NCBI GenBank assembly: GCA_964538855.1
Contig: CAZIEY010000002.1
Span: 153,007-217,006 of the forward strand
Reading direction: 5' to 3'
DNA from: an uncultured Candidatus Saccharibacteria bacterium
GTDB taxonomy: Bacteria; Patescibacteriota; Minisyncoccia; Phycocordibacterales; JAACPR01
DNA: 64,000 nt
Below are positions 836 through 63,553 of the stretch, piece by piece. The position numbers were made by a program, and so were the translations under genes. Position 1 is the stretch's first letter. Each line of letters starts with the position of its first letter. Under the pieces are notes generated by a model, which did not search any database, was not told the DNA's origin, and was given only the letters and a program-made list of their open reading frames with translations.

Positions 836-946
836 CTACTTCAAAATTTAAAAGTCCTAGGGTCGCATCACGCACGTTCAGCAATGAATGTGCGTTTTGT
901 GTTGATGCTCAACCAGACATTTTAAATTTCGAAGTAGTTTGACTAT
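836..946. terminator. Long near-perfect inverted repeat (21-bp arms aaactacttcaaaatttaaaa / ttttaaatttcgaagtagttt) enclosing two nested sub-hairpins; likely rpsI operon terminator or small structured RNA
   Basis: Arms at ~837-859 and ~922-946 are reverse complements (1 mismatch); inner stems cgcacgttc/gaatgtgcg and gcatca/tgatgc seen directly. Confidence 0.4.
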
Positions 947-1024
947 TACCAGAAGGCGGTAGTTCTAAAGAAATTCTAAAGTTTTTTCTTGCCTCTGAAT
1001 AATGCGTGATGTATTTTGAGGTAG

Positions 1025-1468
1025 ATGGATAAAGATTTCAATACATGGAATACTAAGAAACAAGCAATTAACAACAAAGCACCTAATCGAGATTTATTTT
1101 TTCATCCTGGAGAATTATGGGAATGTTCGTTTGGAATTAATATTGGGGTAGAAATTGATGGAAAGAATGAAGATTATCAAAGACCTGCTTTGATAATAAA
1201 AAAGTTTAATGGAGATATGTTATGGGTTTTACCGTTGACTACAAAATTTAAAAATACAAAGTATCATTACAAATTACCTAATTCAGATATTGATACATAC
1301 GTTGTTCTATCCCAAATAAGAACTATCAGTTCAAAGAGATTGTTGCGTAGAATTGGCAGAATTGCTTCCTCAGTTTTTGACAACATTATTAAAGAGCTTA
1401 CAAAGATTCTAAATGACGAAAGCCCCCTTGCGGGAGCTTTCTCGGAGGCCGAAGCCACTAATGAATAA
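1025..1468 (+). CDS. MazF/PemK-family mRNA interferase-like toxin with ~30-aa N-terminal extension; no cognate antitoxin ORF found
   Basis: Core GELWECSFGINIGVEIDGK..RPALIIKK...WVLPLTTKFK...YVVLSQIRTISSKRLLRRIG matches PemK/MazF layout (G-D/E-h-W..F.P..G.E..G.RP.hhh...hP.T); 147 aa. Confidence 0.6.
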   Translation: MDKDFNTWNTKKQAINNKAPNRDLFFHPGELWECSFGINIGVEIDGKNEDYQRPALIIKKFNGDMLWVLPLTTKFKNTKYHYKLPNSDIDTYVVLSQIRTISSKRLLRRIGRIASSVFDNIIKELTKILNDESPLAGAFSEAEATNE

Positions 1469-1520: not shown

Positions 1521-1549
1521 TTGACACCTAATTTACAGGATGGTAATGT
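1521..1549 (+). promoter_or_regulatory. sigma70-like promoter ttgaca-N17-taatgt preceding structured non-coding region
   Basis: gtTTGACAcctaatttacaggatggTAATGTttg read directly. Confidence 0.35.
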
Positions 1550-1555
1550 TTGCAC

Positions 1556-1835
1556 GTTGAGCGCAAAACGAGAAGGCTACTGATCTGGGGGGGGAAACTC
1601 TCGGATTTAGATGGTTCGAATCCATCACTCGGTTCTGTGAGCAAGCTTGGTATGTATAGAATAGGCTGGGAGCCGATGAAGTGTCAGGTCACACTGACAT
1701 AGAGGCGTCAGTGGAATACCACTCTTACCAAGCTAAAATCTATTCTGTGATATGGCATGAATCACAGGATAAGCTCGAGGATTGCTCAACTTTGCGGCAC
1801 CCTTATCTCTTGCCTTGGGTGCCGTTTTTCTATAC
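1556..1835 (+). ncRNA. Candidate structured non-coding RNA of unknown class (contains canonical tRNA T-arm gatgg-TTCGAAT-ccatc, pseudoknot-like overlapping helices, terminal hairpin+T-run)
   Basis: 414-nt ORF-free gap between the toxin-like gene and grpE; GGTTCGAATCC at 1613-1623; helices tgtcag/ctgaca, cactgac/gtcagtg, agcttggta/taccaagct; bounded by promoter and terminator. Confidence 0.35.
1795..1832 (+). terminator. Rho-independent terminator cggcaccc-N15-gggtgccg followed by TTTTT
   Basis: 8-bp GC-rich stem and T-run seen directly; sits ~20 nt upstream of grpE -35. Confidence 0.5.
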
Positions 1836-1882
1836 TCCATACTTGGTTTGAAAACCCCGCTTTTTTTGCTATAATACCCCTC

Positions 1883-2434
1883 ATGACAGACGAAATTGTA
1901 TATGAAAACGGCGACGAAGCCACAAATTCATTCGGCACAACAGCCGACGACAAGGTCGCCACACTTAAAAAGCAATTAGAAGAAGCGCTCGCGCAGAAGC
2001 AGGAATATTTGGACGGCTGGCAACGCAGCAAGGCCGACTATATCAACCTCAAAAAACGCTCCGAGGAAGAGCGTGCGAACGTGCGTGACTACGCCACCGA
2101 GGATTTTGCATTGAGCATCATTCCCGTCATCGACAGCTTTGAAATGGCGTTCAAGAATGAGAAAGCTCTCGAAAATGTTCCAAAAGTCTGGACCGAGGGC
2201 GTGAAATACATTTTCAATCAATTAATCGCAGCACTCGCGGGGTACGACATCAAACCAATCGATCCACAGGGCGAAATGTACGATGTGAATAAACACACCG
2301 CTCAGGAAATGGTCAAAGTCGATTCAGAAGCCGACAACGGCAAAATCGTCGAGGTCATTCAAAAAGGCTACGAATTCAAAGGTAAGATGATTCGACATGC
2401 GGTGGTGAAGGTGGGGGAGATTAAAGAGTTGTAG
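1883..2434 (+). CDS. grpE: Nucleotide exchange factor GrpE
   Basis: Start chosen at MTDEIVYENG (ATG 6 nt after a perfect TATAAT at 1871-1876; upstream part of the long ORF looks non-coding); coiled-coil + C-terminal beta domain typical of GrpE. Confidence 0.85.
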   Translation: MTDEIVYENGDEATNSFGTTADDKVATLKKQLEEALAQKQEYLDGWQRSKADYINLKKRSEEERANVRDYATEDFALSIIPVIDSFEMAFKNEKALENVPKVWTEGVKYIFNQLIAALAGYDIKPIDPQGEMYDVNKHTAQEMVKVDSEADNGKIVEVIQKGYEFKGKMIRHAVVKVGEIKEL

Positions 2435-2444
2435 TAGTTAAAAT

Positions 2445-3092
2445 ATGAAAAAATTTCTACGCATATTATCTTATTTAGCTCTTGGGTTAATAGTACTCTG
2501 TCTTTGCTACGGATTTTTTCTTAATCTAACACTGAAAGAACACATTGGTGCCTCGAGTCAAGAATTTTACATATCAATGCGACAGACAGATGAATTTTAT
2601 AAGCATGGTCTGTGCTCAGACATTCTCATAGTTTACCCTTGGCAAAATCCATCTCATAATCCAACGCAGGATTATTCCTCAAAAACCCACTGTGAGATGG
2701 TAGATAAAGAAAATCCTTTTGACTTTACGTACGTAAAGTCCTGGGGAAATAAGAAAGATATATCTGCTTTTGGTTATACTACCCACCCATTTACTTTAGT
2801 TAAAAAACTTTTCTTTAATAATCCATCCTCTATTTGTATTGAAGGAGTTCAGCAACCACTTCATTTACAAGAAAATATTTACTCAACGGAGTGGTTTTCT
2901 GTCAGAGGTCTAGAATATTCAATCGTTATGACAGAATCAGATAAAAATGATTGGGTAGGTATTATTAAAAATTTATCAGCAAGTAACGACAAGCCCGCAA
3001 AAGCGTTTCTTGTTAAGAAAGATAGTTGTAATAACATTAACGAGTCGGATGTATTAAAAACATATCCAATCAAATTTAATACTAATTGGTAG
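2445..3092 (+). CDS. Hypothetical protein with N-terminal transmembrane/signal segment, inserted between grpE and dnaK
   Basis: 215-aa ORF, hydrophobic N-terminus LALGLIVLCLCYGFFL; no recognisable motif. Confidence 0.5.
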   Translation: MKKFLRILSYLALGLIVLCLCYGFFLNLTLKEHIGASSQEFYISMRQTDEFYKHGLCSDILIVYPWQNPSHNPTQDYSSKTHCEMVDKENPFDFTYVKSWGNKKDISAFGYTTHPFTLVKKLFFNNPSSICIEGVQQPLHLQENIYSTEWFSVRGLEYSIVMTESDKNDWVGIIKNLSASNDKPAKAFLVKKDSCNNINESDVLKTYPIKFNTNW

Positions 3093-3139
3093 TGATAAAA
3101 GCATCTTGATTTTCTCCACATTTACCATATAATACACCC

Positions 3140-3439
3140 ATGTTCGCCCTATCCGCACAGCAAAAATACTTCCAAAAAGAAGTCGTTCTGCCAAACGGCT
3201 CAAAGGCTATTGTCTTCTTCGAGCTCGTTGAAACTAACGGCCGAATTGTTGCTCGCGCTGTTAACGTTCAAATCATTTCCGAGGCTAAGGCGTCTGCATC
3301 TGTCGTCTACCTTCCGGTTTCAATTACTCGTGCAATTTTTGCACCGGTTGTTGCTTTCTATTCAAACTATGTTGCTCCAATTGTCGAAGAACTTTCTTTC
3401 ATCACAAGCCAACCAACTCGCGCGCCATCTCTCGCTTAA
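3140..3439 (+). CDS. Hypothetical protein (99 aa)
   Basis: ORF only; position between grpE and dnaK. Confidence 0.35.
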   Translation: MFALSAQQKYFQKEVVLPNGSKAIVFFELVETNGRIVARAVNVQIISEAKASASVVYLPVSITRAIFAPVVAFYSNYVAPIVEELSFITSQPTRAPSLA

Positions 3440-3494
3440 AATTTCGTAGCTTTTTATTAACAAAGCTTTTACAAATTTTAACCTAAATAAAAAT

Positions 3495-5387
3495 ATGGCA
3501 AAAATAATTGGTATTGACCTCGGTACTACTAACTCCGCGGTTGCATTCGTAGAAGGTGGCGAACCTCGCATCATTGAAAACGTCGAAGGAAATCGCACGA
3601 CACCTTCAATCGTAGGTATTACTCGAAATAATGAACGACTCGTTGGGCAAATCGCAAAACGACAAGCGGTGACAAATCCAAAAAACACTGTCTACGGTAT
3701 CAAACGATTCATTGGACACGCGTTCGACGAACCAGCTTTGGACAAAGACAAGAAAACCGTTCCATACGAAATCAAAAAGTCTGACACAAACGGTGTGCTC
3801 GTGAAAATGGGTGACAAAGAATATCGTCCAGAAGAAATTTCGGCGATGATTTTGACAAAGTTGAAGAATGACGCAGAAGCAAAGCTCGGTGAAAAAATTA
3901 CCGAAGCAGTTATTACCGTTCCTGCATACTTCAACGACTCACAACGCCAAGCTACAAAAGACGCGGGTAAAATCGCGGGGCTTGATGTAAAACGAATCAT
4001 CAATGAACCGACTGCGGCGGCTCTTGCGTACGGCTTCAACAAAAATAAAGACGAGAAAATCGTAGTGTACGACTTCGGAGGTGGAACATTCGATATTTCG
4101 GTGCTTGAAGTTGCTGACAACGTGATCGAAGTGAAATCGACAGACGGAGACTCACATATGGGTGGACGCGACATCGATCAGAAAATCATGCGATTCATCA
4201 TCGATGAATTCAAAAAGGATACTGGAATCGATGTGTCAAAAGACGCGCTCGCGTTGCAACGAATCGACGAAGCGGCTGAAAAAGCAAAAATGGAATTGTC
4301 GACTTCAATGGAAACAGAAGTTAACATTCCATTCATCGCGACTGGTCAAAATGGTCCGGAACACCTCGTCAAAAAAATAACTCGAGCAAAATTGGAGGAA
4401 CTTTCTGCAGAATTCATTGAACGATCTATCGAAATTACAAAGCGTGCGATGGCGGCTTCTCCTTTCAAAATCAACGAAATTAACGAAGTGATTTTGGTTG
4501 GTGGACAAACTCGTATGCCAAAAATTATCGAAGAAGTGAAAAAACTTTTCGGTAAGGAACCAAACAAGGGCGTAAACCCTGACGAAGTGGTGGCAATCGG
4601 TGCTGCAATTCAAGCCGGAATTTTGCAAGGTGACGTGAAAGACGTGCTCTTGCTCGACGTGATTCCACTTTCTCTTGGAATTGAAACAATGGGAGGTGTC
4701 GCGACAAAATTGATTGAGAAAAACAAAACGATTCCAACAACGGCTTCACAAGTTTTCTCTACCGCAGCCGACAATCAGACGCAAGTCGAAATCAACATTG
4801 TCCAGGGTGAACGCGCAATGGCGGCCGACAACAAATCGCTCGGACGATTCGTGCTCGATGGAATTCCACCAGCTCCACGCGGCGTGCCTCAAGTCGAAGT
4901 AACGTTTGATATCGACGCAAACGGAATTTTGAACGTAAAGGCGACTGACAAAGCTTCTAAAAAAGAACAAACCATTCGTATTGAAGCGAGCTCGTCTCTC
5001 TCAAAAGAAGAAATTGAAAAGATGAAAAAAGACGCCGAAATGCACGAAGCCGACGACAAGAAAAAGAAAGAAGTCATCGACGCGAAAAACATGGCGGAAC
5101 AAATGGCGTACACTGCGGAAAAAGCGCTCAAAGACGCAGGCGACAAAGTGCCAGCTGATATAAAAACTTCTGTTGAAGCGAAAATCAAAGAAGTTCGCGA
5201 AGTCGCGGCAAAAGATTCACTCGACGACATCAAAAAAGTTTCGACTGAACTTTCTACAGAAATGCAGAAAATCGGTGAATTCATGAGCAAGCAAAATGCT
5301 GAAGCTCCAAAAGCTGACGCAAAAGATGCTGGCACAACTGCCGATTCAGGAAACGTTCGCGACGCGGAAGCTGAAGATAAGAAATAA
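3495..5387 (+). CDS. dnaK: Chaperone DnaK (Hsp70)
   Basis: [17 protein letters not shown]..., [19 protein letters not shown] Hsp70 signatures; 630 aa. Confidence 0.95.
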
Positions 5388-5389
5388 TA

Positions 5390-6280
5390 ATGACAAAAGA
5401 CTTCTACAACATATTGGGCGTGACAAAATCTGCGAGCAAAGACGACATTAAAAAAGCGTATCGCAAATTAGCGCATGAACATCACCCGGATAAACCCGGC
5501 GGAAACGAGGCCAAGTTTAAAGAGATAAACGAGGCATATTCTGTGCTATCTGACGACACGAAACGTGGCCAATATGATCAATTCGGACAGACCTTTAACG
5601 GTGCCGGAGGTGGTCATGGTGCGGGTGGTTTCGGAGGCTTCGGTCAAGGTGGATTCGAGGGTTTTGATTTCTCGCAATTCACGAATGGCGCGGGAGGCGG
5701 TTTTGAATTCGACCTGAACGACATTTTGGGCGGTATGTTTGGAGGAGGGCGTCGTCGCCAGCGAAAAGGTGCGGATATTTCTATCGATATTGAAATCGAT
5801 TTCAAGGATTCGATTTTAGGTGTCTCTCGCGAAATAAATTTCGCGCGTAAAACCGGTGGCACAGAACATATCAAAGTAAATGTTCCACCTGGCATCGATA
5901 GTGGAGAAATGATTCGCTACACCGGCCGCGGTGAGCAAATTCCTGATGGTCAGCCGGGCGACTTGTACGTGCGCATTCACGTGAAGCCGCATAAAAGACT
6001 TCGCAAAGAGGGGTATCATTTAGTCACAGAAGAAAAAATCACGCTTTCAGAATCAATTTTGGGAGCGAAAAAAGATATTGAATCTGTTGATGGTGTTATC
6101 ACTGTGAAAATTCCAGAGGGAAGCAAACATGGCGAAGTATTGCGCGTACGTGGACGTGGCGTACCAGTATCGACTCGTGAAGTAGGAGACTTGCTCATCA
6201 AGATTTCCGTCGAATATCCAAAAAAGTTATCAAAGAAAGCAAAAGAAGCGATAGAGATATTGCAAAAAGAGGGGATGTAA
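5390..6280 (+). CDS. dnaJ: DnaJ/CbpA-like J-domain co-chaperone lacking the CxxCxGxG zinc-finger domain
   Basis: J domain with HPD (AHEHHPDK), Gly/Phe-rich linker, C-terminal substrate-binding domains; no Cys repeats; 296 aa. Confidence 0.8.
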
Positions 6281-21780: not shown

Positions 21781-22992
21781 TTACATTCCCTTCAAAATCT
21801 TGAGGGCTTCATCGAATTGATAATCCATTAATTTCGTGTCTTTCGGCGCTGTTTCAGGTACCTTTTCTATCAAATAATCAGGAGTAAGTCCACCATCTGA
21901 AATAGATTTTCCAGTTGGAGTTAACCATCGTGCAATCGTCACCTTGAGAGAGGTTTCTGGGCTAATTTCGACTAATTCTTGCACAGATCCTTTGCCGAAT
22001 GTTTTTGTTCCTACTAATTTTGCAATACCGTGTTCCTGTAGTGCACCTGCCAAAATTTCAGAGGCCGAAGCCGACCCTTTGTTCACAAGCACAACCATTT
22101 TCAAATTATTGTTGAAAATATTTTGCCCATCGCTGCGGAAGTCTTTTTTACTGTCGCCGAAATCTTCGGAAACAATCACTTTGCCTGTTGGCACAAACCA
22201 ACTTGCCATATCAACAGCAGCGTCCAAATATCCACCAGGGTTACCACGCAAATCGAGAATCAGACGGCTTTTTTTAGAAAGTACAAATTCACGCAGAGCT
22301 TTGCGAAATTCACTGCTTGATTGAGAACCAAAACTATAGAGCGAGATAACAAAAACCCCGTCTGAACGCAATTCCGTTTTAATATTCGGAATGACAATCT
22401 TTTCGCGAGTGATCTTAACTTCACGTTCTTCTTTTTCACCTTCACGGAAAATAGTGAGAGTTACCACGGTACCAAGCGGGCCGCGAATCTTGCTCACACC
22501 TTGTTCAATGGTCATACCTTCGGTAGAAACTCCGTCAATTTTAAGAACATGATCCCCAGTCATCATGCCAGCACGTTCTGCCGGAGAATCTTTGAGAGGA
22601 GCGACCACAACAAAGAAGTCGTCTTCGATTCCGACTTCCATACCAATTCCTTCAAAATTACCCTCGAGACTTTCTTCGAAATCTTTTTTCTCTTTTGGTG
22701 GGAAAAATGTAGTGTGAGGATCACCAAGTGAATCCACGAGACCTGAAATGGCACCCCAGACTTTTTCCTGATTTGAAACTGCGGTTGTGCTCGACGCTGC
22801 AATGAATTTTTCATCCAATAGCTGCCACACTTTCCAAAAATCACTGAGATCTGCATTTTCAACTTTGTCCAAATTCGCCGAGAATGCAAAATTATTATTG
22901 CTATTCCCTACAAAATATCCGCAAAAGAAAATCAGCCCAATCAGAATAAGACTCACTCCGGCAAAAGACAGGTTTTTGGTAAATGTTTTCAT
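21781..22992 (-). CDS. Carboxyl-terminal processing protease (S41, CtpA/Prc-like) with PDZ domain
   Basis: N-terminal TM; PDZ segment; LVNKGSASASEILAGALQE...TFGKGSVQ S41 catalytic region. Confidence 0.85.
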   Translation of the reverse strand: MKTFTKNLSFAGVSLILIGLIFFCGYFVGNSNNNFAFSANLDKVENADLSDFWKVWQLLDEKFIAASSTTAVSNQEKVWGAISGLVDSLGDPHTTFFPPKEKKDFEESLEGNFEGIGMEVGIEDDFFVVVAPLKDSPAERAGMMTGDHVLKIDGVSTEGMTIEQGVSKIRGPLGTVVTLTIFREGEKEEREVKITREKIVIPNIKTELRSDGVFVISLYSFGSQSSSEFRKALREFVLSKKSRLILDLRGNPGGYLDAAVDMASWFVPTGKVIVSEDFGDSKKDFRSDGQNIFNNNLKMVVLVNKGSASASEILAGALQEHGIAKLVGTKTFGKGSVQELVEISPETSLKVTIARWLTPTGKSISDGGLTPDYLIEKVPETAPKDTKLMDYQFDEALKILKGM

Positions 22993-29473: not shown

Positions 29474-30559
29474 TTACTCAACCTCCGGCTTCTCCACCAA
29501 AATCGGCTCAATCCCAATCTGATTTTCAGTAATACGCGCCACGTCTTTATCAATCTTTTTGAGTTCGTGATGAGCCTTGTTGTAATGACCGACCGTCACA
29601 CCGAGCGACTTGCCGAGCGCCGATAAAAATTTCTCGTATGAACCGACATGCGCACCCAATTCCGCCACGCGCTTAATAATATCTTTAGTCTTCTCTTCAA
29701 TTTGAAGCGCCTTCAAACCCTGCAACACCGTCTGTAAATATGCCAAAAATGAGGTCGGTGACACGATAATGACTTTGTATTTTCGCGCAGCAATTTCAAT
29801 CATGTTTTCACCTTCGTCGAGTCCTCTTGTACCAATTTTATTCACGAGCAAATCGTAATAAATCGCTTCGTGCGGAATGAACATAAATGCAAATTCCAAA
29901 GTGTTGCGCGCCGGCTGAATGTATTTTGAAGTTTCTTTGATGCGCTCCTTGAGGTCGTTAATAAACATTTTTTCGAGCTCTTCGCGGCGGGCTTGATCCT
30001 GTTCTTTGATAAAACGATTGTAATTTTCGAGGCTGAATTTTGAATCAACCGGAATGATTTTCCCTTTCACAAACACAACTGCGTCCACGATTAAATCACT
30101 GCCAGTATTTTCATCCTTGCCCAAATTGTATTGCATCGCGTAACTTTCTGGCGGGAGCACATTTTTCAAAACTGTTTCGAGGAAATATTCACCCAAAACG
30201 CCGCGTTGTTTTGGATTCTTTAAAATGTCTTGAAGCGATTTCAATTGATCCGCGAACCCGACGACTTGTTTATTCGTCTCGTCCAATTTCGTGAGGCGTT
30301 CCGTGATGTCTTTTATGACACGATATGATTCGCCTGCCTGATATTTGAGCGATTCTTGCATTTCCTTGGCGCTCATACCCAATTTTTGATCAACGTTGCG
30401 CCCCATATCGTTCAGTTGCTGAAGGAGAAGCTGCATCGACGACGTCACCGCTGCCGAATTGTCCACCGGTTTATCTTTTCTGGCTTGCCAAAATGCAAAA
30501 ATTAAAAATGCGTTCATAAGGACGATTACGACGGCGAGGATGATGAGTGTGGTTGTCAT
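29474..30559 (-). CDS. rmuC: DNA recombination protein RmuC
   Basis: N-terminal TM, long coiled coil, QRGVLGEYFLE (RGxxGExxL) motif typical of RmuC. Confidence 0.7.
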   Translation of the reverse strand: MTTTLIILAVVIVLMNAFLIFAFWQARKDKPVDNSAAVTSSMQLLLQQLNDMGRNVDQKLGMSAKEMQESLKYQAGESYRVIKDITERLTKLDETNKQVVGFADQLKSLQDILKNPKQRGVLGEYFLETVLKNVLPPESYAMQYNLGKDENTGSDLIVDAVVFVKGKIIPVDSKFSLENYNRFIKEQDQARREELEKMFINDLKERIKETSKYIQPARNTLEFAFMFIPHEAIYYDLLVNKIGTRGLDEGENMIEIAARKYKVIIVSPTSFLAYLQTVLQGLKALQIEEKTKDIIKRVAELGAHVGSYEKFLSALGKSLGVTVGHYNKAHHELKKIDKDVARITENQIGIEPILVEKPEVE

Positions 30560-39140: not shown

Positions 39141-39182
39141 AAGCAGTACCCTATCATATAAATAAACGTATGTCAATAGTAT
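39141..39182 (-). promoter_or_regulatory. Promoter ttgaca-N17-tagggt (minus strand) for the PKD-repeat gene; same motif recurs at 39762-39805
   Basis: Minus-strand reading TTGACAtacgtttatttatatgaTAGGGTactg; twin copy TTGACAaccacaacaaagtatgaTAGGGTgctg. Confidence 0.4.
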
Positions 39183-39278
39183 TGTTCGATTAAATTAAAG
39201 TGGGGTGAGTATAAAAAGAAAGAACCGCCGCGTCCGGTGAAGGATAGCGACGGTTCGGTGGACCCCAGTGCCTCTCGG

Positions 39279-39704
39279 CTACTGGGGGGTTGCGGTGGTA
39301 AGCGGGGTTTTTACCCGAAACACCGCGCGGTTCGCAGGAAAACGAACCGTTTCGACGGTCCAAACAATGGTAGTTCCCGAAAAGGAAACCCCCACAATCT
39401 GGCCTGAAGTAGGTGCCTGGAACGGCCCCGTTGGATCGGTTGCCCGTTCCAACTTGTACGTCCCAGTCACTGTTCCGTAATCGTAGGAAATCATCATGAG
39501 ACTTCCCGAACCCCTGGCGATTTTCACACGACCGGGCTCTGCTGTGGCACCAGTAAGATAGAAAGGCAACAGCGGCCGCGGAGCGTCGTTGATCACCACA
39601 GTTTCAGGTGACCACAACACCACCCCCTCCTGCTGTTCTCCCGCGAAGGAAGATACGAGGCAGAAAAAGGAAAGGATAATCGAAGACAGAACAAGTCGAT
39701 TCAT
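39279..39704 (-). CDS. Secreted hypothetical protein encoded in GC-rich (~57 %) island
   Basis: Signal peptide MNRLVLSSIILSFFCLVSSFA; codon/GC usage unlike flanking genes. Confidence 0.5.
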   Translation of the reverse strand: MNRLVLSSIILSFFCLVSSFAGEQQEGVVLWSPETVVINDAPRPLLPFYLTGATAEPGRVKIARGSGSLMMISYDYGTVTGTYKLERATDPTGPFQAPTSGQIVGVSFSGTTIVWTVETVRFPANRAVFRVKTPLTTATPQ

Positions 39705-39761
39705 AGAAAGAACTCCTCATGCCGTCGTCGAGATACACTTGTACCCCATACAACAACAGAA

Positions 39762-39805
39762 CAGCACCCTATCATACTTTGTTGTGGTTGTCAAATATAA
39801 AAATC
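39762..39805 (-). promoter_or_regulatory. Second copy of ttgaca-N17-tagggt promoter motif, upstream of 39279..39704
   Basis: See 39141-39182. Confidence 0.4.
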
Positions 39806-39833
39806 CTTCATTCAAAATTTAATAAAAATAGAA

Positions 39834-39862
39834 GAGCCCACGGAAACGTGTTCCGTGGGCTC
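39834..39862 (-). terminator. Terminator gagcccacggaa-acgtg-ttccgtgggctc (12-bp perfect stem) for gene 39880..40470
   Basis: Read directly; T-rich on minus strand after stem. Confidence 0.5.
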
Positions 39863-39879
39863 CGAGCATGCGCAGTTTC

Positions 39880-40470
39880 TCAGGCTGCGCAATAGCGAGC
39901 TCTCTCCTTCCTGCGGTGATTGTACTCTGCTTTGCTTCCACGATGATTGTGGGCAGCGGAGACTTCCTTAGCGACTGCAACGGCAAGAATGATTGAACCT
40001 TTTACCCCTTCTTGCCATTTTACAAGAACTGCACCTTGTCCCAACACCCAAGCAGAACCGTGGGTGTTCCCATGCCTCTTGAATGCAGAGGATACCTGGT
40101 CAGCATTCTCCCTTAGTGGAGTGACCAGGATTTTCTCACCGCCCTCCATCGTAACAATGGACTGGAATTCAATTCCTTGACCATCCCTACGTTGGTGACG
40201 CCGAAAGACCACCTCCGTACCCGACAGATCAGGGATTCGGTACTTGATCGTGACAAGGATACGATGTTGGGATTCGTACACAGGAAGTTCCCCCGTTTTT
40301 TTACACAGGTACAACCCCTCCTCTTCAACAGGGATTCCGGGTTGACGAAGGTTTATCCGAAACTTAGTGTCCGGATAATAACCCGATGTGGCTCCCCACT
40401 TTGGGTTTCCCTTCTTAGATGATCCGATTTGGGTCATCCGAAGAACGAGTCCATCTTTGAGAGAGAACAT
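39880..40470 (-). CDS. Hypothetical protein in GC-rich island
   Basis: Start at MFSLKDG with GAGGAGG RBS; no recognisable motif. Confidence 0.45.
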   Translation of the reverse strand: MFSLKDGLVLRMTQIGSSKKGNPKWGATSGYYPDTKFRINLRQPGIPVEEEGLYLCKKTGELPVYESQHRILVTIKYRIPDLSGTEVVFRRHQRRDGQGIEFQSIVTMEGGEKILVTPLRENADQVSSAFKRHGNTHGSAWVLGQGAVLVKWQEGVKGSIILAVAVAKEVSAAHNHRGSKAEYNHRRKERARYCAA

Positions 40471-40579
40471 GAACGACTTCCTCCTCAGGTTAGATTGTAA
40501 TTGGCAGCTCAAAGAGCTCCTCGTCTGATTTAATCATAGAATGAGGAGCTAAGTCAATTAAAATTGACTAGTGGAGAAA

Positions 40580-40696
40580 CTATCGCTTCTTTGATCGTCG
40601 GGCCGCAAGCATCGCCTTTTTAATAGCGAGTCGCTTTTTGGTTTTTCGAGAACGAGAAGTTTTGTTCTTGATGTCTTGTGCTGCTCTTTTTGCCAT
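40580..40696 (-). CDS. Small highly basic protein (38 aa, MAKRAAQDIKNKTSRSRKTKKRLAIKKAMLAARRSKKR); possible ribosomal-like or nucleic-acid-binding peptide
   Basis: ORF below track cutoff, different frame from listed 40558..40767 ORF; composition only. Confidence 0.25.
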   Translation of the reverse strand: MAKRAAQDIKNKTSRSRKTKKRLAIKKAMLAARRSKKR

Positions 40697-40768
40697 ACAA
40701 GTAAGTATACCTTAATTTTAAAAAAAGGCGAATTTTTTATTACAAACGTGCGAACACAACCTTTCAAA

Positions 40769-41935
40769 CTATATTTTTACAATTACACCAGCGTCAGCAT
40801 CTAATAATATCGCATCACCATCTTTAAGTACTCTTGTTGCATTCTTTGTACCAACCACGCAAGGAATTTTGTACTCTCGACTTATTAATGCTGCATGAGA
40901 CATCAGCCCACCTTCATCGGTAATCACACCAGATACTTTCGCAAACCCCATAGCGAGATGAGGGGACGTCATAGGTGCCACAATAATATCCCCTCGTTTT
41001 AATTGATCAATGAACGTATTGTAACCTTTTTCAGATAATAACGCTGGGACAATTTTAGCAGTACCCTGTACTTTTCCGGGATATACACTTTTCCCTTTTA
41101 TGCAATCAGTAGGTGCATTTTCAAAATCATTAATTTTTCTGATATCGTCCTCAGAAAGCTCTGTGATGGTAACATCGTCTTTATTAACATGTATTTCCAG
41201 ACCAAAACCTTCCATTCTTTTATTTAAGACCTCGACATTAACAGAGCCACCTACAACAAGTAAATCTTCTAATTCATGTAACGACATATTAGCCACCTGA
41301 GGAATAGTGTATTTTTTTCTAGTACTGACCACTGATATCAAACGGGCGATATCTGATGATAAATTTTCTGTGATCTGTTTCGCTTCGAATCTCATTCTTG
41401 AAACGTATCTAATCACATTAAACAAGTCTTGATATTTTTCTAATCCATATTTCATAAAACCTTTTTCTGATGATAATATGTCCGCCAATATCGCATCTAT
41501 ATTTGTATTACTTTGAGTATCTAACACAATAGTTCTCGCCTTATTTTCAAGATGTTGCACCAAATGCGGTTCAGTGAGACGATACACGGAAATAAACTTT
41601 CCAAACAAAACTATGACCTCTCTAAAGAAATTATATATTTGTGTGTTAGAGATTTTCTCAAAATCTAATTTCGAAAATGTTGTATGAAACGTAGCGATGT
41701 CATTTCTCACTTTTGCAAAATCAATTTCAATATTCAATATTTTTTGAGGATCATCAATCAGATTACTAGTTAAAACACGCACTGCCTCTATTTCATCATC
41801 GGTCGCATACGCGGACAAAACACCTTGGCGATACACAAAATAACCACTATGAAAGAAGTAGTGTTTCCCGGTGGTTTCAGTAGCCCACAAATAATCTATA
41901 AAACTTTCTCTCCATAAAAAATGCGGAGTTTTCAT
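40769..41935 (-). CDS. PEP-utilising-enzyme family protein (C-terminal phosphohistidine swivel domain) with unknown N-terminal domain
   Basis: C-terminus GGLMSHAALISREYKIPCVVG matches PEP-utilizers mobile-domain His motif. Confidence 0.6.
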   Translation of the reverse strand: MKTPHFLWRESFIDYLWATETTGKHYFFHSGYFVYRQGVLSAYATDDEIEAVRVLTSNLIDDPQKILNIEIDFAKVRNDIATFHTTFSKLDFEKISNTQIYNFFREVIVLFGKFISVYRLTEPHLVQHLENKARTIVLDTQSNTNIDAILADILSSEKGFMKYGLEKYQDLFNVIRYVSRMRFEAKQITENLSSDIARLISVVSTRKKYTIPQVANMSLHELEDLLVVGGSVNVEVLNKRMEGFGLEIHVNKDDVTITELSEDDIRKINDFENAPTDCIKGKSVYPGKVQGTAKIVPALLSEKGYNTFIDQLKRGDIIVAPMTSPHLAMGFAKVSGVITDEGGLMSHAALISREYKIPCVVGTKNATRVLKDGDAILLDADAGVIVKI

Positions 41936-44196: not shown

Positions 44197-45279
44197 TTAA
44201 ATCTGTCTAAGCGCCGGTCGATACCCAGTCGCATCGCCGTTTTTGTTAAATCCGTACGTACCTAAAACTCCGTCGAAATCTGTCAGAGTGTGAAGGTAAT
44301 TTTGTATCGTCTCCGAATCTATGCTTTTTGTATCGTCAATAGCTCGCTTTAATACATAGACCGAATCATATGTAACAGAAACTGCAAAATCAAAAGTGGG
44401 CTGACCAAATCGTTCCTTGTAAGTTGAAAATATTTTTTCTTTTTTACTAGTATTAGGGATTTCAGGATCTGCCGGATATGTCATACCCTTTGCGAAAGGA
44501 ATATTCCGTATTTCTGGTATGCTGCCCACATAATTCCCGTAGATCGCCCCTTTATATTTTCTTTGTTCAAGTTGATTCAAAATAGCTATTGCACTCCCCG
44601 ATTCGTTTGCATTTATAAATATAGCTTGCGGATTGTGACTCATTATCTTTTGCACCTGTGTCCGCACATCTGTCGAATGTGGCAAAGCATCCTCGCTGTA
44701 CAGAGTGCCCGTATAATGTTTTTTAAAAGCCTCTTTCATTCCTGCAGAATAATCCCCGAGTTCAGTAATAATACCTACGGATGTATATTTTGTATTCATA
44801 TCTTCGGCAATAATCTGCGCCGAGTCTTCATCAGAGTGTGAATTACGAAAAACATATTCACTCATGCCAGATATCTGAGGATTTGTAGACCATACTGCAA
44901 TGAGATTTATTTTGGCACGATCGGCAATCTCTCCTGCTGCCAAAGTTTCTGCCGAGCAAGACGACATAAGGAAATTTACACGATCAATAGAGATAAGTTT
45001 TTGCGCCGCAATCGAAGCTGTTTTCGCATCACATTTTCCGTCTTCGTAAATTACTTCCAGTCGTTTACCCAGAGTATCCCCTGCGGAATTAATTTCTTCA
45101 ATCGCTAATTCCATAGCATGCTTCTCTTCAATTCCCCATGATGCACCGAAACCCGTAAGTGGGGCGATAAAACCAATTTTAATTGATTCATTATTTGTGG
45201 TTTTAGAACTGTTAATACCAACTGCTGCGGCAATAGTAATAATTGCTACAAAAACCCATATTTTGTGGTTTATTTTCAT
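44197..45279 (-). CDS. ABC transporter substrate-binding protein, LivJ/Leu-Ile-Val-binding family (orphan)
   Basis: Signal/TM anchor, type I periplasmic-binding fold length and motifs (IGFIAPLTG...); no adjacent permease/ATPase. Confidence 0.75.
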   Translation of the reverse strand: MKINHKIWVFVAIITIAAAVGINSSKTTNNESIKIGFIAPLTGFGASWGIEEKHAMELAIEEINSAGDTLGKRLEVIYEDGKCDAKTASIAAQKLISIDRVNFLMSSCSAETLAAGEIADRAKINLIAVWSTNPQISGMSEYVFRNSHSDEDSAQIIAEDMNTKYTSVGIITELGDYSAGMKEAFKKHYTGTLYSEDALPHSTDVRTQVQKIMSHNPQAIFINANESGSAIAILNQLEQRKYKGAIYGNYVGSIPEIRNIPFAKGMTYPADPEIPNTSKKEKIFSTYKERFGQPTFDFAVSVTYDSVYVLKRAIDDTKSIDSETIQNYLHTLTDFDGVLGTYGFNKNGDATGYRPALRQI

Positions 45280-45414
45280 ACAACATAAACCCTATCAACA
45301 AAACAAAATATGTTTAGTAGGTATCGACATGTATACAATAAAAGGTCTATTATATCCATATACAAAGCCATACTATTGTTGACTGTGGTACAACAACATG
45401 TTAGCGTATTTTAT

Positions 45415-48072: not shown

Positions 48073-48720
48073 TTAAAAAGAGGCGGTTATATAACCCCAC
48101 ACATTTTTAATATTTTTGTCCTTCTCCCAATATGCAGCGATCTTTTGTCGCATTTCTGCATGTTGAGGATACCCTTTATCAACCACTCCTTCAGGCAGCA
48201 AATCTTTGCATTCCACATTTAACAAAACTGTCAGAGCCTCTTTTATGTCATTATATTTTTGATGTCCGAGCCTTTCTTCTTGATCAGAACCTAATCCATA
48301 CCATGTATAGAAGTGCCACAATTCATGCATTGTAGTTTGTATAGCTTGCGAGGATTGAAGAGAAACATAAAAGAAATTATTTTCGATACTGTACGGACAT
48401 CGACTGTTAATTGTCAGATACGCAGTAAGATCTTGTGGAAGCACAACTCCGAAAATTGCTTCTGCCCTCTTTTGAAATTCAGACGAAATACGTTCCCAGT
48501 CAGCTTGAGATGCCGCAATTCGATTTTTAATATCGATATGATTTTCGGTGATATATTCATCAATAAATACACCGACTGATTCTGTGGTTGGATTCTCTCC
48601 GTATTTTTGAACAAGCTGTGTGTATTGCTTGGTTGGGTTTTGTGAGTGACTTGAGCTTTTACCTTTGTTAAGAAGACACCAGATGTCCTTGTCTCTGTCG
48701 TATGTAAAATTGATGCGCAT
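48073..48720 (-). CDS. Hypothetical protein with HExxH motif (putative zinc metallopeptidase)
   Basis: TMHELWHFYTW. Confidence 0.35.
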   Translation of the reverse strand: MRINFTYDRDKDIWCLLNKGKSSSHSQNPTKQYTQLVQKYGENPTTESVGVFIDEYITENHIDIKNRIAASQADWERISSEFQKRAEAIFGVVLPQDLTAYLTINSRCPYSIENNFFYVSLQSSQAIQTTMHELWHFYTWYGLGSDQEERLGHQKYNDIKEALTVLLNVECKDLLPEGVVDKGYPQHAEMRQKIAAYWEKDKNIKNVWGYITASF

Positions 48721-55013: not shown

Positions 55014-56114
55014 TTATTCTACCATTACATAGGAACCGCCCCGAATCTGGCGAAGTTCTGTATCTTGAAAAGATTGCTGACCGTACTCATTAAATTTTAT
55101 TACGTTTGAATAACCAACATAATTATCGACAGAATTTAGATAATTTTTGATATCTTCTCCATTTTTAGCTCCAGATTTTATTGCATCAATAACAAGCATA
55201 GTCATATCATAAGATGTTGCAGCACTAATTGCTGATGGTAAAGTTCCGAAACGCTTCAAATATTTATCGTTGAATTCTGATGTTTTTACGTACACCTTGT
55301 CGGCTGGATAATATATTCCATCTCCAATGCTTGCTCCTGCCTGATTAGACAACAATGATTGAATGGAGCCAACTGGCATGAAGATTGGTAAGTTAATTCC
55401 GAGTTCTTTTGTTTGTCTCGCAAAAACCTCTGGCTTACTGCCACCTGATATAACAGCGTAGATAACATCAGCGTCGCTATTTTTTAATTTAAGCAATTCT
55501 GTTCGATAATCAGAAATTCCCTCGTTTGTCTTTGATTCAAAAACAATACTAAGGTCTTTATAATTATCTTTTACTTCCTGCTTGACGACCGCCGCCAAAT
55601 TATCTGACCAAGAGCTCACGTTCGAATAGAGAGCAACTTTTTTATGTCCAGATTTAACCATGTAATCCAAGACCTCTTTAACTTGAAATCTTTCGCTGGC
55701 TGTTGCTGAAAAATAATATGGTAATTTAGACCACTCGAATTCGCTTGCCATCCAAGGAGAAATGACTGGAACATTCGCGGTATTTCCAATAGGTGCGGCA
55801 ACTTCACCCCACTCTGCCCATTCTGGACCAATAATTACGTCCACACCGTCTACGTTGATCAATTTTCTAGTCGCAGTAACTGTTTTAGAAATATCTGACT
55901 GAGTATCTTCCAAAACATAATCAACATCTAGACCGGAATCCTCTATCGCCATGATAAAACCATTACGAGAAGATTCTCCAGCAAATGACACAAATCCAGT
56001 TTGACCAAACAATCCACCAATTTTTATCGTGTTATTTGTTTCAGTGGGCTTGTTCAAAGATACTGCCAAAATGATTATCGCAATTACTACTACTGGCCAA
56101 ATTATTTTTTTCAT
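55014..56114 (-). CDS. ABC transporter substrate-binding protein, LivJ family (orphan)
   Basis: Fourth paralogous SBP. Confidence 0.75.
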   Translation of the reverse strand: MKKIIWPVVVIAIIILAVSLNKPTETNNTIKIGGLFGQTGFVSFAGESSRNGFIMAIEDSGLDVDYVLEDTQSDISKTVTATRKLINVDGVDVIIGPEWAEWGEVAAPIGNTANVPVISPWMASEFEWSKLPYYFSATASERFQVKEVLDYMVKSGHKKVALYSNVSSWSDNLAAVVKQEVKDNYKDLSIVFESKTNEGISDYRTELLKLKNSDADVIYAVISGGSKPEVFARQTKELGINLPIFMPVGSIQSLLSNQAGASIGDGIYYPADKVYVKTSEFNDKYLKRFGTLPSAISAATSYDMTMLVIDAIKSGAKNGEDIKNYLNSVDNYVGYSNVIKFNEYGQQSFQDTELRQIRGGSYVMVE

Positions 56115-60145: not shown

Positions 60146-60505
60146 ATGGAGATTCAGATCCAAAATTCAAAAGCATCCTCTCTCAATTTTCCAAAAAGAA
60201 AGTCGAGAAATAAATGCGAAGAGAAATGGAATGACTCCGAAAATCAGAAAATATTTCTAGACGAACAAGAGTTCTATATAGACGAGTCTGGTATTGATGT
60301 AATTGCAAAATTTAAACTACCACCCTATCTCAAAGAAAAGATAGTGCGAGGAGAAGTTAATATCAACGGAACATTTTTCCCAGAAGAAACAAATCGTGAA
60401 CTAGAAGATTTGCTCGATACGCAAGAAAAGCTTTTGCTAAATGGTAAAACAGCACAACAAGTAGATTTCGACAAATTACTGGAAACAGGACTCTTGAGAT
60501 TATAG
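60146..60505 (+). CDS. Hypothetical acidic protein (119 aa)
   Basis: ORF only. Confidence 0.4.
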   Translation: MEIQIQNSKASSLNFPKRKSRNKCEEKWNDSENQKIFLDEQEFYIDESGIDVIAKFKLPPYLKEKIVRGEVNINGTFFPEETNRELEDLLDTQEKLLLNGKTAQQVDFDKLLETGLLRL

Positions 60506-63225: not shown

Positions 63226-63364
63226 GTTCGTCGCGATTTATTTTATAAATTCCTAAAGATGAGACACAAAAATCCCATCACTAGGAAGACCCGAAGGTCT
63301 CTACACCAGTTTCCCGATGTAACGCGACGAACGCCCTAATGATGGGGTTTTTAAGTTCGTCGCG
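63226..63364 (-). promoter_or_regulatory. Attenuator/riboswitch-like leader with mutually exclusive helices: X1/X2 (cgcgacgaac, two copies) vs Y (gttcgtcgcg), and a 17-bp terminator helix enclosing a UUCG-capped hairpin
   Basis: Plus-strand: gttcgtcgcg 63226-35 and 63355-64; inverse cgcgacgaac 63323-32; terminator arms 63268-85 / 63334-52 with T-runs both sides; gaccUUCGggtc inner hairpin (minus-strand sense). Confidence 0.4.
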
Positions 63365-63553
63365 ATTTTGACCATATCCTTTGAAATTTCAAAGGGGTTA
63401 GGTCCAATTAATATGTAATTGTCAGGATTAAATGATACAACAAAAGCATCGTTTAATCCAGTTTAGATTATATCGCTGAACACTCTCTTTGCTAAGACTT
63501 GGTGACGACCACACTACGCTTTTCCGTGTTTGCATAGATATATTAAAAAATGT

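Follow-up and report, generated by a model that had tools for sequence, protein, structure and literature searches.

Organization of the locus

A stretch of 64,000 nucleotides (nt) of contig CAZIEY010000002.1 (assembly GCA_964538855.1), hereafter the window, contains on its minus strand two short, GC-rich genes, ORF A and ORF B (ORF, open reading frame), which are the subject of this analysis. The window is Patescibacteria/Parcubacteria chromosomal DNA; it carries dnaK, dnaJ, grpE, gltX, cysS, dnaB and class I ribonucleotide reductase (RNR) genes, and the best genome relative of its RNR large subunit is a Candidatus Taylorbacteria metagenome-assembled genome (MAG), with 74% amino acid (aa) identity. 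In the direction of transcription, ORF B and ORF A are preceded by a small basic ORF and followed by a gene for a surface protein with PKD/SprB repeats, hereafter the PKD gene (Table 1). Each of the two ORFs has its own predicted promoter, its own Shine-Dalgarno (SD) site and its own hairpin terminator, and they are therefore separate transcription units; with promoters and terminators taken from sequence prediction, ORF A and ORF B would be independent monocistronic units.

The locus was compared with its counterparts in relatives, namely L001 (Logan DRR438536), L002 (Logan SRR25018350), L003 and L004 (GCA_013558375.1), L021 (MAG GCA_964412465.1) and L023 (GCA_020049755.1). The pair is found at the same locus in all of these six other assemblies, five of which come from other samples.

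Table 1. Features of the ORF A/ORF B locus and examples of host-type promoters (positions are those of the window; nt, nucleotides; aa, amino acids)
Feature	Position	Strand	Remarks
Small basic ORF, 38 aa (MAKRAAQDIKNKTSRSRKTKKRLAIKKAMLAARRSKKR)	40580-40696	-	Host-like; TATACT -10 box at 40704-40709, 7 nt before the ATG
ORF B promoter (predicted)	40528-40557	-	-35 TTGACT at 40552-40557; 18-nt spacer ending in TG (40535-40536); -10 TTAAAT at 40528-40533
ORF B SD site, AGGAGG	40480-40485	-	9 nt before the ATG
ORF B, 196 aa from the ATG	39880-40470	-	Predicted to be cytoplasmic; allele class B1
ORF B intrinsic terminator (predicted)	39822-39863	-	13-bp stem at 39833-39863, then a T-tract; from a terminator scan
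ORF A promoter (predicted)	39762-39794	-	-35 TTGACA at 39789-39794; extended -10 block TATGATAGGGT, with TAGGGT at 39766-39771, then GCTG
ORF A 5' leader, ~55 nt	39705-39761	-	Hairpin at 39716-39761; SD site AGGAG at 39713-39717
ORF A, 141 aa	39279-39704	-	Allele class A1
ORF A intrinsic terminator (predicted)	39208-39256	-	10-bp GC-rich stem at 39222-39256, then a T-tract
PKD gene promoter (predicted)	39144-39176	-	Second motif copy, TTGACA-N12-TATGATAGGGTACTG
PKD/SprB-repeat surface protein, 427 aa	37827-39110	-	Signal peptide and C-terminal transmembrane anchor; Pfam PKD_4 and SprB matches
Genes with TGnTAnnnT before the start codon (examples)	21781-22992, 29474-30559, 40769-41935, 48073-48720, 55014-56114, 60146-60505		

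Coding status of the two ORFs

A first-pass annotation of this DNA had described two ORFs, a signal-peptide protein and a 196-aa hypothetical protein, neither with a recognisable domain, and this description is borne out by the coding signal and by the empty family searches reported below. Indeed, (i) protein-guided codon alignments show that the frames are maintained, with indels that preserve the frame, even between alleles with an aa identity of no more than 43-55%, and (ii) codon-level comparison gives ratios of nonsynonymous to synonymous divergence (dN/dS) of 0.11-0.41 for ORF B and 0.25-0.43 for ORF A, with 0.12 for the PKD gene and 0 for RNR. Judged by this substitution pattern, ORF A and ORF B are protein-coding and under purifying selection. 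Over 13 kb, the window is matched with 100% identity by a Logan contig of run SRR13208889, and gene order and junctions are common to assemblies from at least five other samples, so that an assembly chimera is excluded. No match to Rfam was obtained in the island at the gathering score, and only chance-level ones at E<5. The exact ORF A protein of the window is absent from a 15-billion-protein collection, and no gene is called at its position on the identical Logan contig; the versions of the relatives are called. ORF A was probably overlooked by gene finders owing to its atypical composition.

Promoters and translation initiation signals

The motif TTGACA-N17-TAGGGT(A/G)CTG occurs exactly twice in the window, before ORF A and before the PKD gene, and both copies are retained in the relatives. 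No match to its 21 specified bases, TTGACA-N12-TATGATAGGGTRCTG, was found in 100 shuffles with 3 mismatches allowed; the shared motif is not due to chance. It fits a sigma-70 promoter of the extended -10 type (TTGACA, 17-nt spacing, TG at -15/-14, TAnnnT). Thus, the claim that the secreted-protein and PKD genes stand behind an identical promoter holds, with the exact motif present twice and 0 of 100 shuffles matching. The idea of a two-gene island driven by this motif was mistaken, since of the two genes only ORF A, like the PKD gene, lies behind the motif and since the predicted promoter of ORF B, which is TG-extended, has another sequence, TTGACT-N18-TTAAAT, itself kept in L001, L002 and L003. 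An 8-bp inverted repeat, AGCTCCTC-N20-GAGGAGCT (40505-40545), straddles the -10 of ORF B and is kept in the relatives; it may be an operator.

The same annotation had called the motif host-type, which is right in part: the TGATA of its extended -10 is the native core (consensus TTTGATATACT), and TGATAGGGT is also found before a native gene. This third copy (45289-45297, minus strand) lies 9 nt before the ATG of a periplasmic-binding-protein gene (44197-45279); read as a leaderless promoter, it implies that the unusual TAGGGT hexamer is also used by a native gene. A duplication of the promoter, proposed as well, does not hold. Indeed, the ORF A and PKD promoters both have a perfect -35 and have 15 nt around the -10 in common, whereas the 12-nt spacer from the -35 to TATGAT has essentially no shared sequence, and across strains the ORF A promoter retains its -35 and -10 hexamers in spite of a variable spacer (the -10 of L021 being TAGTGT). 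As the spacers are unrelated, the motif is not a duplicated segment; sequence comparison suggests two functionally constrained promoters of one class and a co-regulation of ORF A and the PKD gene.

Translation signals set the pair apart from the other genes. In 12 of the 51 window genes an extended -10 element TGnTAnnnT, with the consensus given above, ends 6-10 nt ahead of the start codon, and a recognisable -35 is usually lacking; the organism seems, from these sequence features, to rely on leaderless, SD-independent translation initiation. A search of one literature collection on leaderless initiation and SD usage in bacteria of the candidate phyla radiation (CPR) returned nothing relevant. 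A well-placed SD site of at least 5 nt is found only before ORF A and ORF B (2/51; 0/49 for the others; Fisher p ~8e-4). Both genes sit behind long leaders; the leader of the PKD gene measures 37 nt and has no SD site. Strong SD sites are likewise found before other GC-rich orphan genes, which lie in the neighbouring variable zone of L001 and L021. The foreign-type character that had been proposed for the pair is therefore supported beyond GC content, by SD sites and long leaders in a host that is SD-less and often leaderless.

The terminator of ORF B (folding energy -25 kcal/mol, z -5.4) is invariant across all aligned strains; in L001 and L002, the terminator stem of ORF A (-27.9 kcal/mol, z -3.4) is maintained with altered bases. 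Upstream, a hairpin is predicted in the leader of ORF A (-21 kcal/mol, z -2.6) that overlaps part of the SD site and is mostly invariant in the relatives, its SD end and the stretch before the ATG being variable (AUGAGGAG vs AUAGGGAG); this hairpin may serve translational control or mRNA stabilisation.

Base composition

The pair had been presented as an island of ~57% GC in surroundings of ~38%. The island is real, but its amplitude was overstated. Indeed, the GC content of positions 39190-40520 is 50.6%, compared with a window mean of 39.5% (standard deviation 3.2% for 1330-nt windows; z ~3.5), and this is the most GC-rich stretch of such a length (~1.3 kb) within the 64 kb. In a 300-nt sliding profile the bump spans ~39.2 to 40.5 kb; the slightly wider range 39150-40560, which had been delimited at first, has 49.4%, and values of 57-58% are limited to sub-windows of 300-426 nt that cover the 3' half of ORF A together with the terminator. 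ORF A has a GC content of 54.5% and ORF B of 50.1%, and their GC contents at third codon positions (GC3) are 0.58 and 0.49, compared with 0.36 +/- 0.07 for the host, that is, z-scores of 3.1 and 1.8, respectively. The composition of the PKD gene is host-like (GC3 0.26). High expression was considered as the source of the GC3 of the pair and ruled out, since the GC3 of ribosomal protein genes is ordinary (0.38), although that of grpE, dnaK and dnaJ is raised.

The operon of grpE, a 215-aa ORF, dnaK and dnaJ (1521-6280, plus strand) is the second most GC-rich region of the window. Its promoter is one of just four perfect TTGACA-N17-TAnnnT sites in the window, and grpE is preceded by a leader of ~200 nt.

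Conservation, age and recombination of alleles

In the relatives, the small ORF, ORF B, ORF A and the PKD gene follow each other in the same order beside RNR, with the same GC bump, and the flanks are 89-96% identical at the nt level. The synonymous divergence (dS) between the window and L001, which carries the orthologous allele, is 0.20 for ORF B, and 0.29 and 0.26 for the flanking PKD and RNR genes. As the dS of ORF B matches that of the flanks, the genes predate the divergence of the compared lineages, whose flanks are roughly 92-95% identical in nt sequence to those of the window. A recent acquisition, which had been suggested on the basis of base composition and the shared promoter, is contradicted by the occupation of the same locus in six relatives, by this flank-level dS and by deep alleles that are equally GC-rich.

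Both genes occur in two deep allele classes. Class B2 (L002, L021) is 53% identical in aa sequence to class B1 of the window, and class A2 (L001, L021, L023) is 43-48% identical to class A1, in an otherwise conserved setting: the 175-nt intergenic spacer between the two genes (IGR2) is 93-97% identical throughout, the PKD protein has 90-93% identity to its counterparts in L001 and L021, and RNR has a protein identity of 100%. The deep alleles of both genes are rich in GC3 (0.49-0.69), and dS between the classes is saturated. All four allele combinations are present, namely B1A1 in the window, B1A2 in L001, B2A1 in L002 and B2A2 in L021, which implies recombination between ORF A and ORF B. Breakpoints are located at the edges of the coding sequences; in ORF A, the signal peptide and the last codons are conserved, and the mature domain alone is replaced.

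The 38-aa ORF forms the right-hand end of the block common to the relatives, and homology ends at position 40725. In L001, L002 and L003 the coding sequence of this ORF has 6-8 nt changes, synonymous ones included, yet the encoded protein retains 97-100% identity, and a gene for the identical protein has been called on Logan contig SRR13208889_6461. No family match was found for it. The small ORF is probably leaderless, given the -10 box placed just before its ATG. The protein is extremely basic, with an isoelectric point that is probably above 12, and it is always found just upstream of ORF B.

To the right of position 40725 gene content differs among strains, with a phosphoenolpyruvate (PEP)-utiliser gene in the window, and other orphan genes and a Ser-hydrolase paralogue in L001 and L021. 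Over positions 40726 to ~50100, L021 (1-9700) has counterparts of no genes other than the HD, HAD-hydrolase and binding-protein genes, which makes this a large flexible region. The orphan genes concerned, L001 464-763 (plus strand) and 881-1270 (minus strand) and L021 8654-9103 (minus strand), encode proteins of 99 aa and 129/149 aa; they have a GC content of 46-50%, strong SD sites and no Pfam match.

Homology searches and predicted folds

Neither ORF A nor ORF B has a match in Pfam, NCBIfam, PHROGs, PADLOC or PDB sequences, and no defence or toxin-antitoxin component was matched in PADLOC at E<1 by either allele class. Single-sequence and profile searches of 5.8 billion proteins returned only relatives of the same lineage, with three matches for the ORF A profile, and an exhaustive HMMER scan of 1.84 billion representatives gave a single other 50%-identity cluster for ORF B. 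In nucleotide and profile searches, neither the genes nor the motif were found in JGI metagenome contigs (DNA anchor, protein profile), in IMG/VR (DNA anchor, both profiles) or at 14 Parcubacteria/Saccharibacteria RNR loci. The locus is also absent from the GTDB species representatives, of which the RNR is at most 74% identical in aa sequence. As judged by these searches, both protein families are near-orphans and restricted to the lineage.

Structure models were built from shallow multiple sequence alignments (4 sequences) and reached mean pLDDT values of 54 and 57. Residues 1-21 of ORF A (39642-39704) are predicted to be a Sec signal peptide with n-, h- and c-regions, composed of MNR, LVLSSIILSFFCLVSSF and a cleavage site between A and GE; it is the conserved part of the protein, in both allele classes, and the AF2 model has a helix at residues 3-18. 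The mature part (39291-39641) is hypervariable and is predicted to be a beta-sandwich of ~75 residues resembling immunoglobulin (Ig) or fibronectin type III (FN3) domains, for which Pfam has no match. ORF A thus resembles small secreted modules of the Ig-like, FN3 or PKD type in its signal peptide, its one predicted beta-sandwich and the adjoining PKD-repeat surface protein, but differs from them in the lack of a Pfam match and in a model of moderate confidence. A derivation of ORF A from the PKD gene was rejected, hhalign matching the signal peptide only, and so was a relationship between ORF A and ORF B (hhalign negative).

ORF B has no export signal. Its residues 5-87 are predicted to adopt an S1-like oligonucleotide/oligosaccharide-binding (OB) fold, and the C-terminal half, which terminates in a basic tail rich in Arg, Lys and His, is not covered by the model. 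Unlike known OB folds of the S1/cold-shock type, such as the S1 domain of RNase R or vaccinia K3L, it gives no profile match and is half unmodelled. Indeed, ORF B matched neither PF00575 nor other families of Pfam and NCBIfam at E<0.01-1, and nothing in BFVD (viral folds) at E<0.001. Matches of ORF B to Ig-V domains (E 0.17-1.7) were rejected as chance-level and in conflict with the OB-fold model. The functions considered here for ORF A and ORF B are suggested by these weak structural models together with context.

Genomic context and comparison with known systems

The neighbours of the pair are RNR, HD hydrolase, PEP-utiliser and binding-protein genes. No phage family was detected among the scanned neighbours, and the pair has no similarity to PHROG or BFVD entries. 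Within the window, no second copy of any island sequence of more than 17 nt was found, the sole longer self-match being the palindrome of the ORF B terminator. A diversity-generating retroelement target was considered and rejected: there are no template/variable repeats, no reverse transcriptase domain is found in the scanned genes, and allele differences are not restricted to adenines.

In GC content and GC3, the pair deviates from its host in the way of a classical horizontally acquired genomic island. The patchiness of such islands was not found, the pair being present in 6/6 related assemblies and absent only where RNR is at most 74% identical in aa sequence. Horizontal transfer and compositionally atypical genomic islands have been described in Patescibacteria (PMC12455944); the pair resembles these islands in its atypical GC content within a streamlined CPR genome and in its hypothetical genes, and differs from them in that integrase, tRNA gene, repeats and donor are lacking and in that it is conserved in all sampled relatives, and thus not patchy.

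A closer parallel in behaviour is provided by the replacement flexible genomic islands of aquatic bacteria described by Lopez-Perez, Rodriguez-Valera and colleagues (PMC4033161). As in these islands, highly divergent versions occupy one chromosomal position, exchange takes place in conserved flanks, and at least one product, ORF A, is predicted to be exposed outside the cell. However, replacement flexible islands are multi-gene glycosylation or envelope clusters of tens of kb with a GC content below that of the genome, whereas single genes of 0.35-0.6 kb with a GC content above it are found here, and ORF B is predicted to be cytoplasmic. On sequence comparison, the locus behaves as a miniature replacement-type flexible island, in which a shared locus and exchange are found and a multi-gene surface cluster is not.

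Autonomous extra transcription units in prophages, reportedly termed morons by Hendrix and colleagues, offer another comparison. The pair is similar to them in having its own predicted promoters and terminators, a deviant base composition and no recognisable function, and differs from them in that there is no prophage, the context being housekeeping and accessory metabolism.

Elsewhere in the window, a full-length LOOT RNA match (RF03000) lies at 63286-63404 (minus strand; 77.7 bits vs a gathering score of 46.4) and is the only Rfam match in the window, and a MazF/PemK-family toxin gene (1025-1468, plus strand; PF02452, E 4e-13) adjoins the gene for ribosomal protein S9.

Origin of the two genes

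The explanation that is favoured, and that is held to be somewhat probable, is that ORF A and ORF B are two cassettes of foreign type, long resident in and restricted to this lineage, which are re-assorted by recombination at the edge of a strain-variable segment. Each cassette consists of a predicted sigma-70-type promoter with a consensus -35 and an extended -10 on the host TGAT core, a long SD-led leader, a coding sequence under purifying selection and a strong predicted hairpin terminator. The genes would have entered the lineage long ago from an unsampled, GC-richer and SD-using pool, which could be phage, plasmid or another bacterium, and would now be expressed from host-compatible promoters. 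Their allele classes are re-assorted by homologous recombination in the conserved 175-nt spacer. The ORF A protein could be exported by Sec and act as a small Ig-like binding module at the cell surface, co-expressed with the PKD surface protein from the same type of promoter, and its variable mature domain would suggest diversifying or frequency-dependent selection by contact with a host or phage. ORF B could be a cytoplasmic protein that binds RNA or single-stranded DNA through its S1-like OB fold and basic tail.

Several results weigh against this explanation. (i) Amino acid composition accounts for about half of the GC excess (the GC content expected under host codon usage being 47% for ORF A and 45% for ORF B), and only the remaining half lies at synonymous sites. 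(ii) The GC-normalised dinucleotide distance delta* deviates mildly (z ~1.6, rank 21/330), and a native gene, grpE, has a GC3 of 0.57. (iii) Polarised substitutions from strong (G or C) to weak (A or T) bases number 50 and those in the reverse direction 40, with 29:18 at third positions, and give no clear sign of amelioration; these counts do not separate amelioration from equilibrium. (iv) No tRNA gene is found in the window, no integrase or transposase domain in the 15 neighbouring genes scanned (33.5-53.6 kb), and no repeat flanks the island. (v) Neither a donor lineage nor a homologue outside the lineage was found in any of the searches, so that the argument for a foreign origin is one of signatures only. 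(vi) The alignments behind the structure models hold just 4 sequences, so that the folds and functions of ORF A and ORF B are tentative.

The main rival, unlikely though well short of negligible, is that the two are native, fast-evolving and lineage-specific genes, with a GC content that would result from GC-biased gene conversion at a recombination hotspot or from selection on codons or mRNA structure, and with SD sites that they would have as members of the few leadered genes. The four allele combinations do demonstrate that the locus recombines, an association of recombination with GC3 has been described in bacteria (PMC4450053), the dinucleotide signature is near native and the promoters are host-type. 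Furthermore, the richness of both allele classes in GC3 at saturated dS is hard to square with passive amelioration in an AT-rich host, and the 50:40 ratio of substitutions does not depart from equilibrium (p=0.34). However, GC3 is lowest in the adjoining PKD gene, which belongs to the same recombining block and which is leadered yet devoid of an SD site. Third-position changes, moreover, lean to AT, and unrelated orphan genes of the neighbouring variable zone have the same signature of SD site plus high GC, which suggests a common external pool.

An extension of the favoured explanation, considered rather improbable, is that ORF A, ORF B and the 99-aa and 129/149-aa orphans of the sister strains all belong to one pool of SD-led, GC-rich and terminator-bounded orphan cassettes, drawn from an unsampled mobile pool into a recombination-prone zone, with the re-assorting alleles acting as determinants of host attachment or of phage/host specificity under frequency-dependent selection. 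Quite improbable is a polymorphic interaction or conflict module, made of a secreted effector and an intracellular partner (anti-phage or decoy), with alleles under balancing selection. CPR bacteria are known for episymbiotic lifestyles, and the present organism is probably an episymbiont, which would suit such a module, as would the two deep allele classes per gene between conserved regulatory flanks, the location of the variable part of ORF A in its predicted exported domain and the adjoining surface PKD protein with the same type of promoter. On the other side, PADLOC and Pfam give no toxin or immunity match, dN/dS is below 0.45 wherever it is measurable, and the alleles of A and B are unlinked, with all four combinations seen, which argues against a cognate pair.

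A recent, genome-specific horizontal insertion under a duplicated local promoter could account for the deviant composition (GC and GC3), for the orphan status of the pair and for the 15-nt promoter block that is identical before adjacent genes. It is very improbable, however, since all sampled relatives carry the pair at this position with a dS equal to that of the flanks, since the spacers of the two promoters are unrelated, and since insertion scars and mobility genes are lacking. Finally, the probability that the ORFs are not genes at all, the GC-rich patch being a structured non-coding RNA or an assembly chimera, is negligible: GC-rich patches in AT-rich genomes are often RNAs and ORF A is uncalled on the identical public contig, but no Rfam match appears even at E<5 above chance level, substitutions are codon-like with in-frame indels, and the junctions recur in the assemblies of at least 5 other samples and in one 100% identical contig, so that both versions are refuted as far as sequence analysis reaches.

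Implications

If the favoured explanation of old-resident, re-assorted cassettes holds, the locus would illustrate, cleanly and on a small scale, the way in which accessory genes are kept and re-assorted in ultra-small CPR genomes, and the SD-led initiation of the cassettes would contrast with the leaderless, SD-free mode of their host. Should the wider pool of orphan cassettes also be real, the locus would represent a compact "recognition locus" of an episymbiotic CPR bacterium. Among billions of sequences searched, the two protein families have no relatives outside the lineage, and one of them, predicted to be exported and co-regulated with an adhesin-like surface protein, is a candidate for contact between symbiont and host or phage. 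In summary, the locus is a further example of strain-variable accessory cassettes in a CPR genome, a kind that is already known; it poses no challenge to current concepts and is relevant to work on the cell surface and the population genomics of CPR bacteria.

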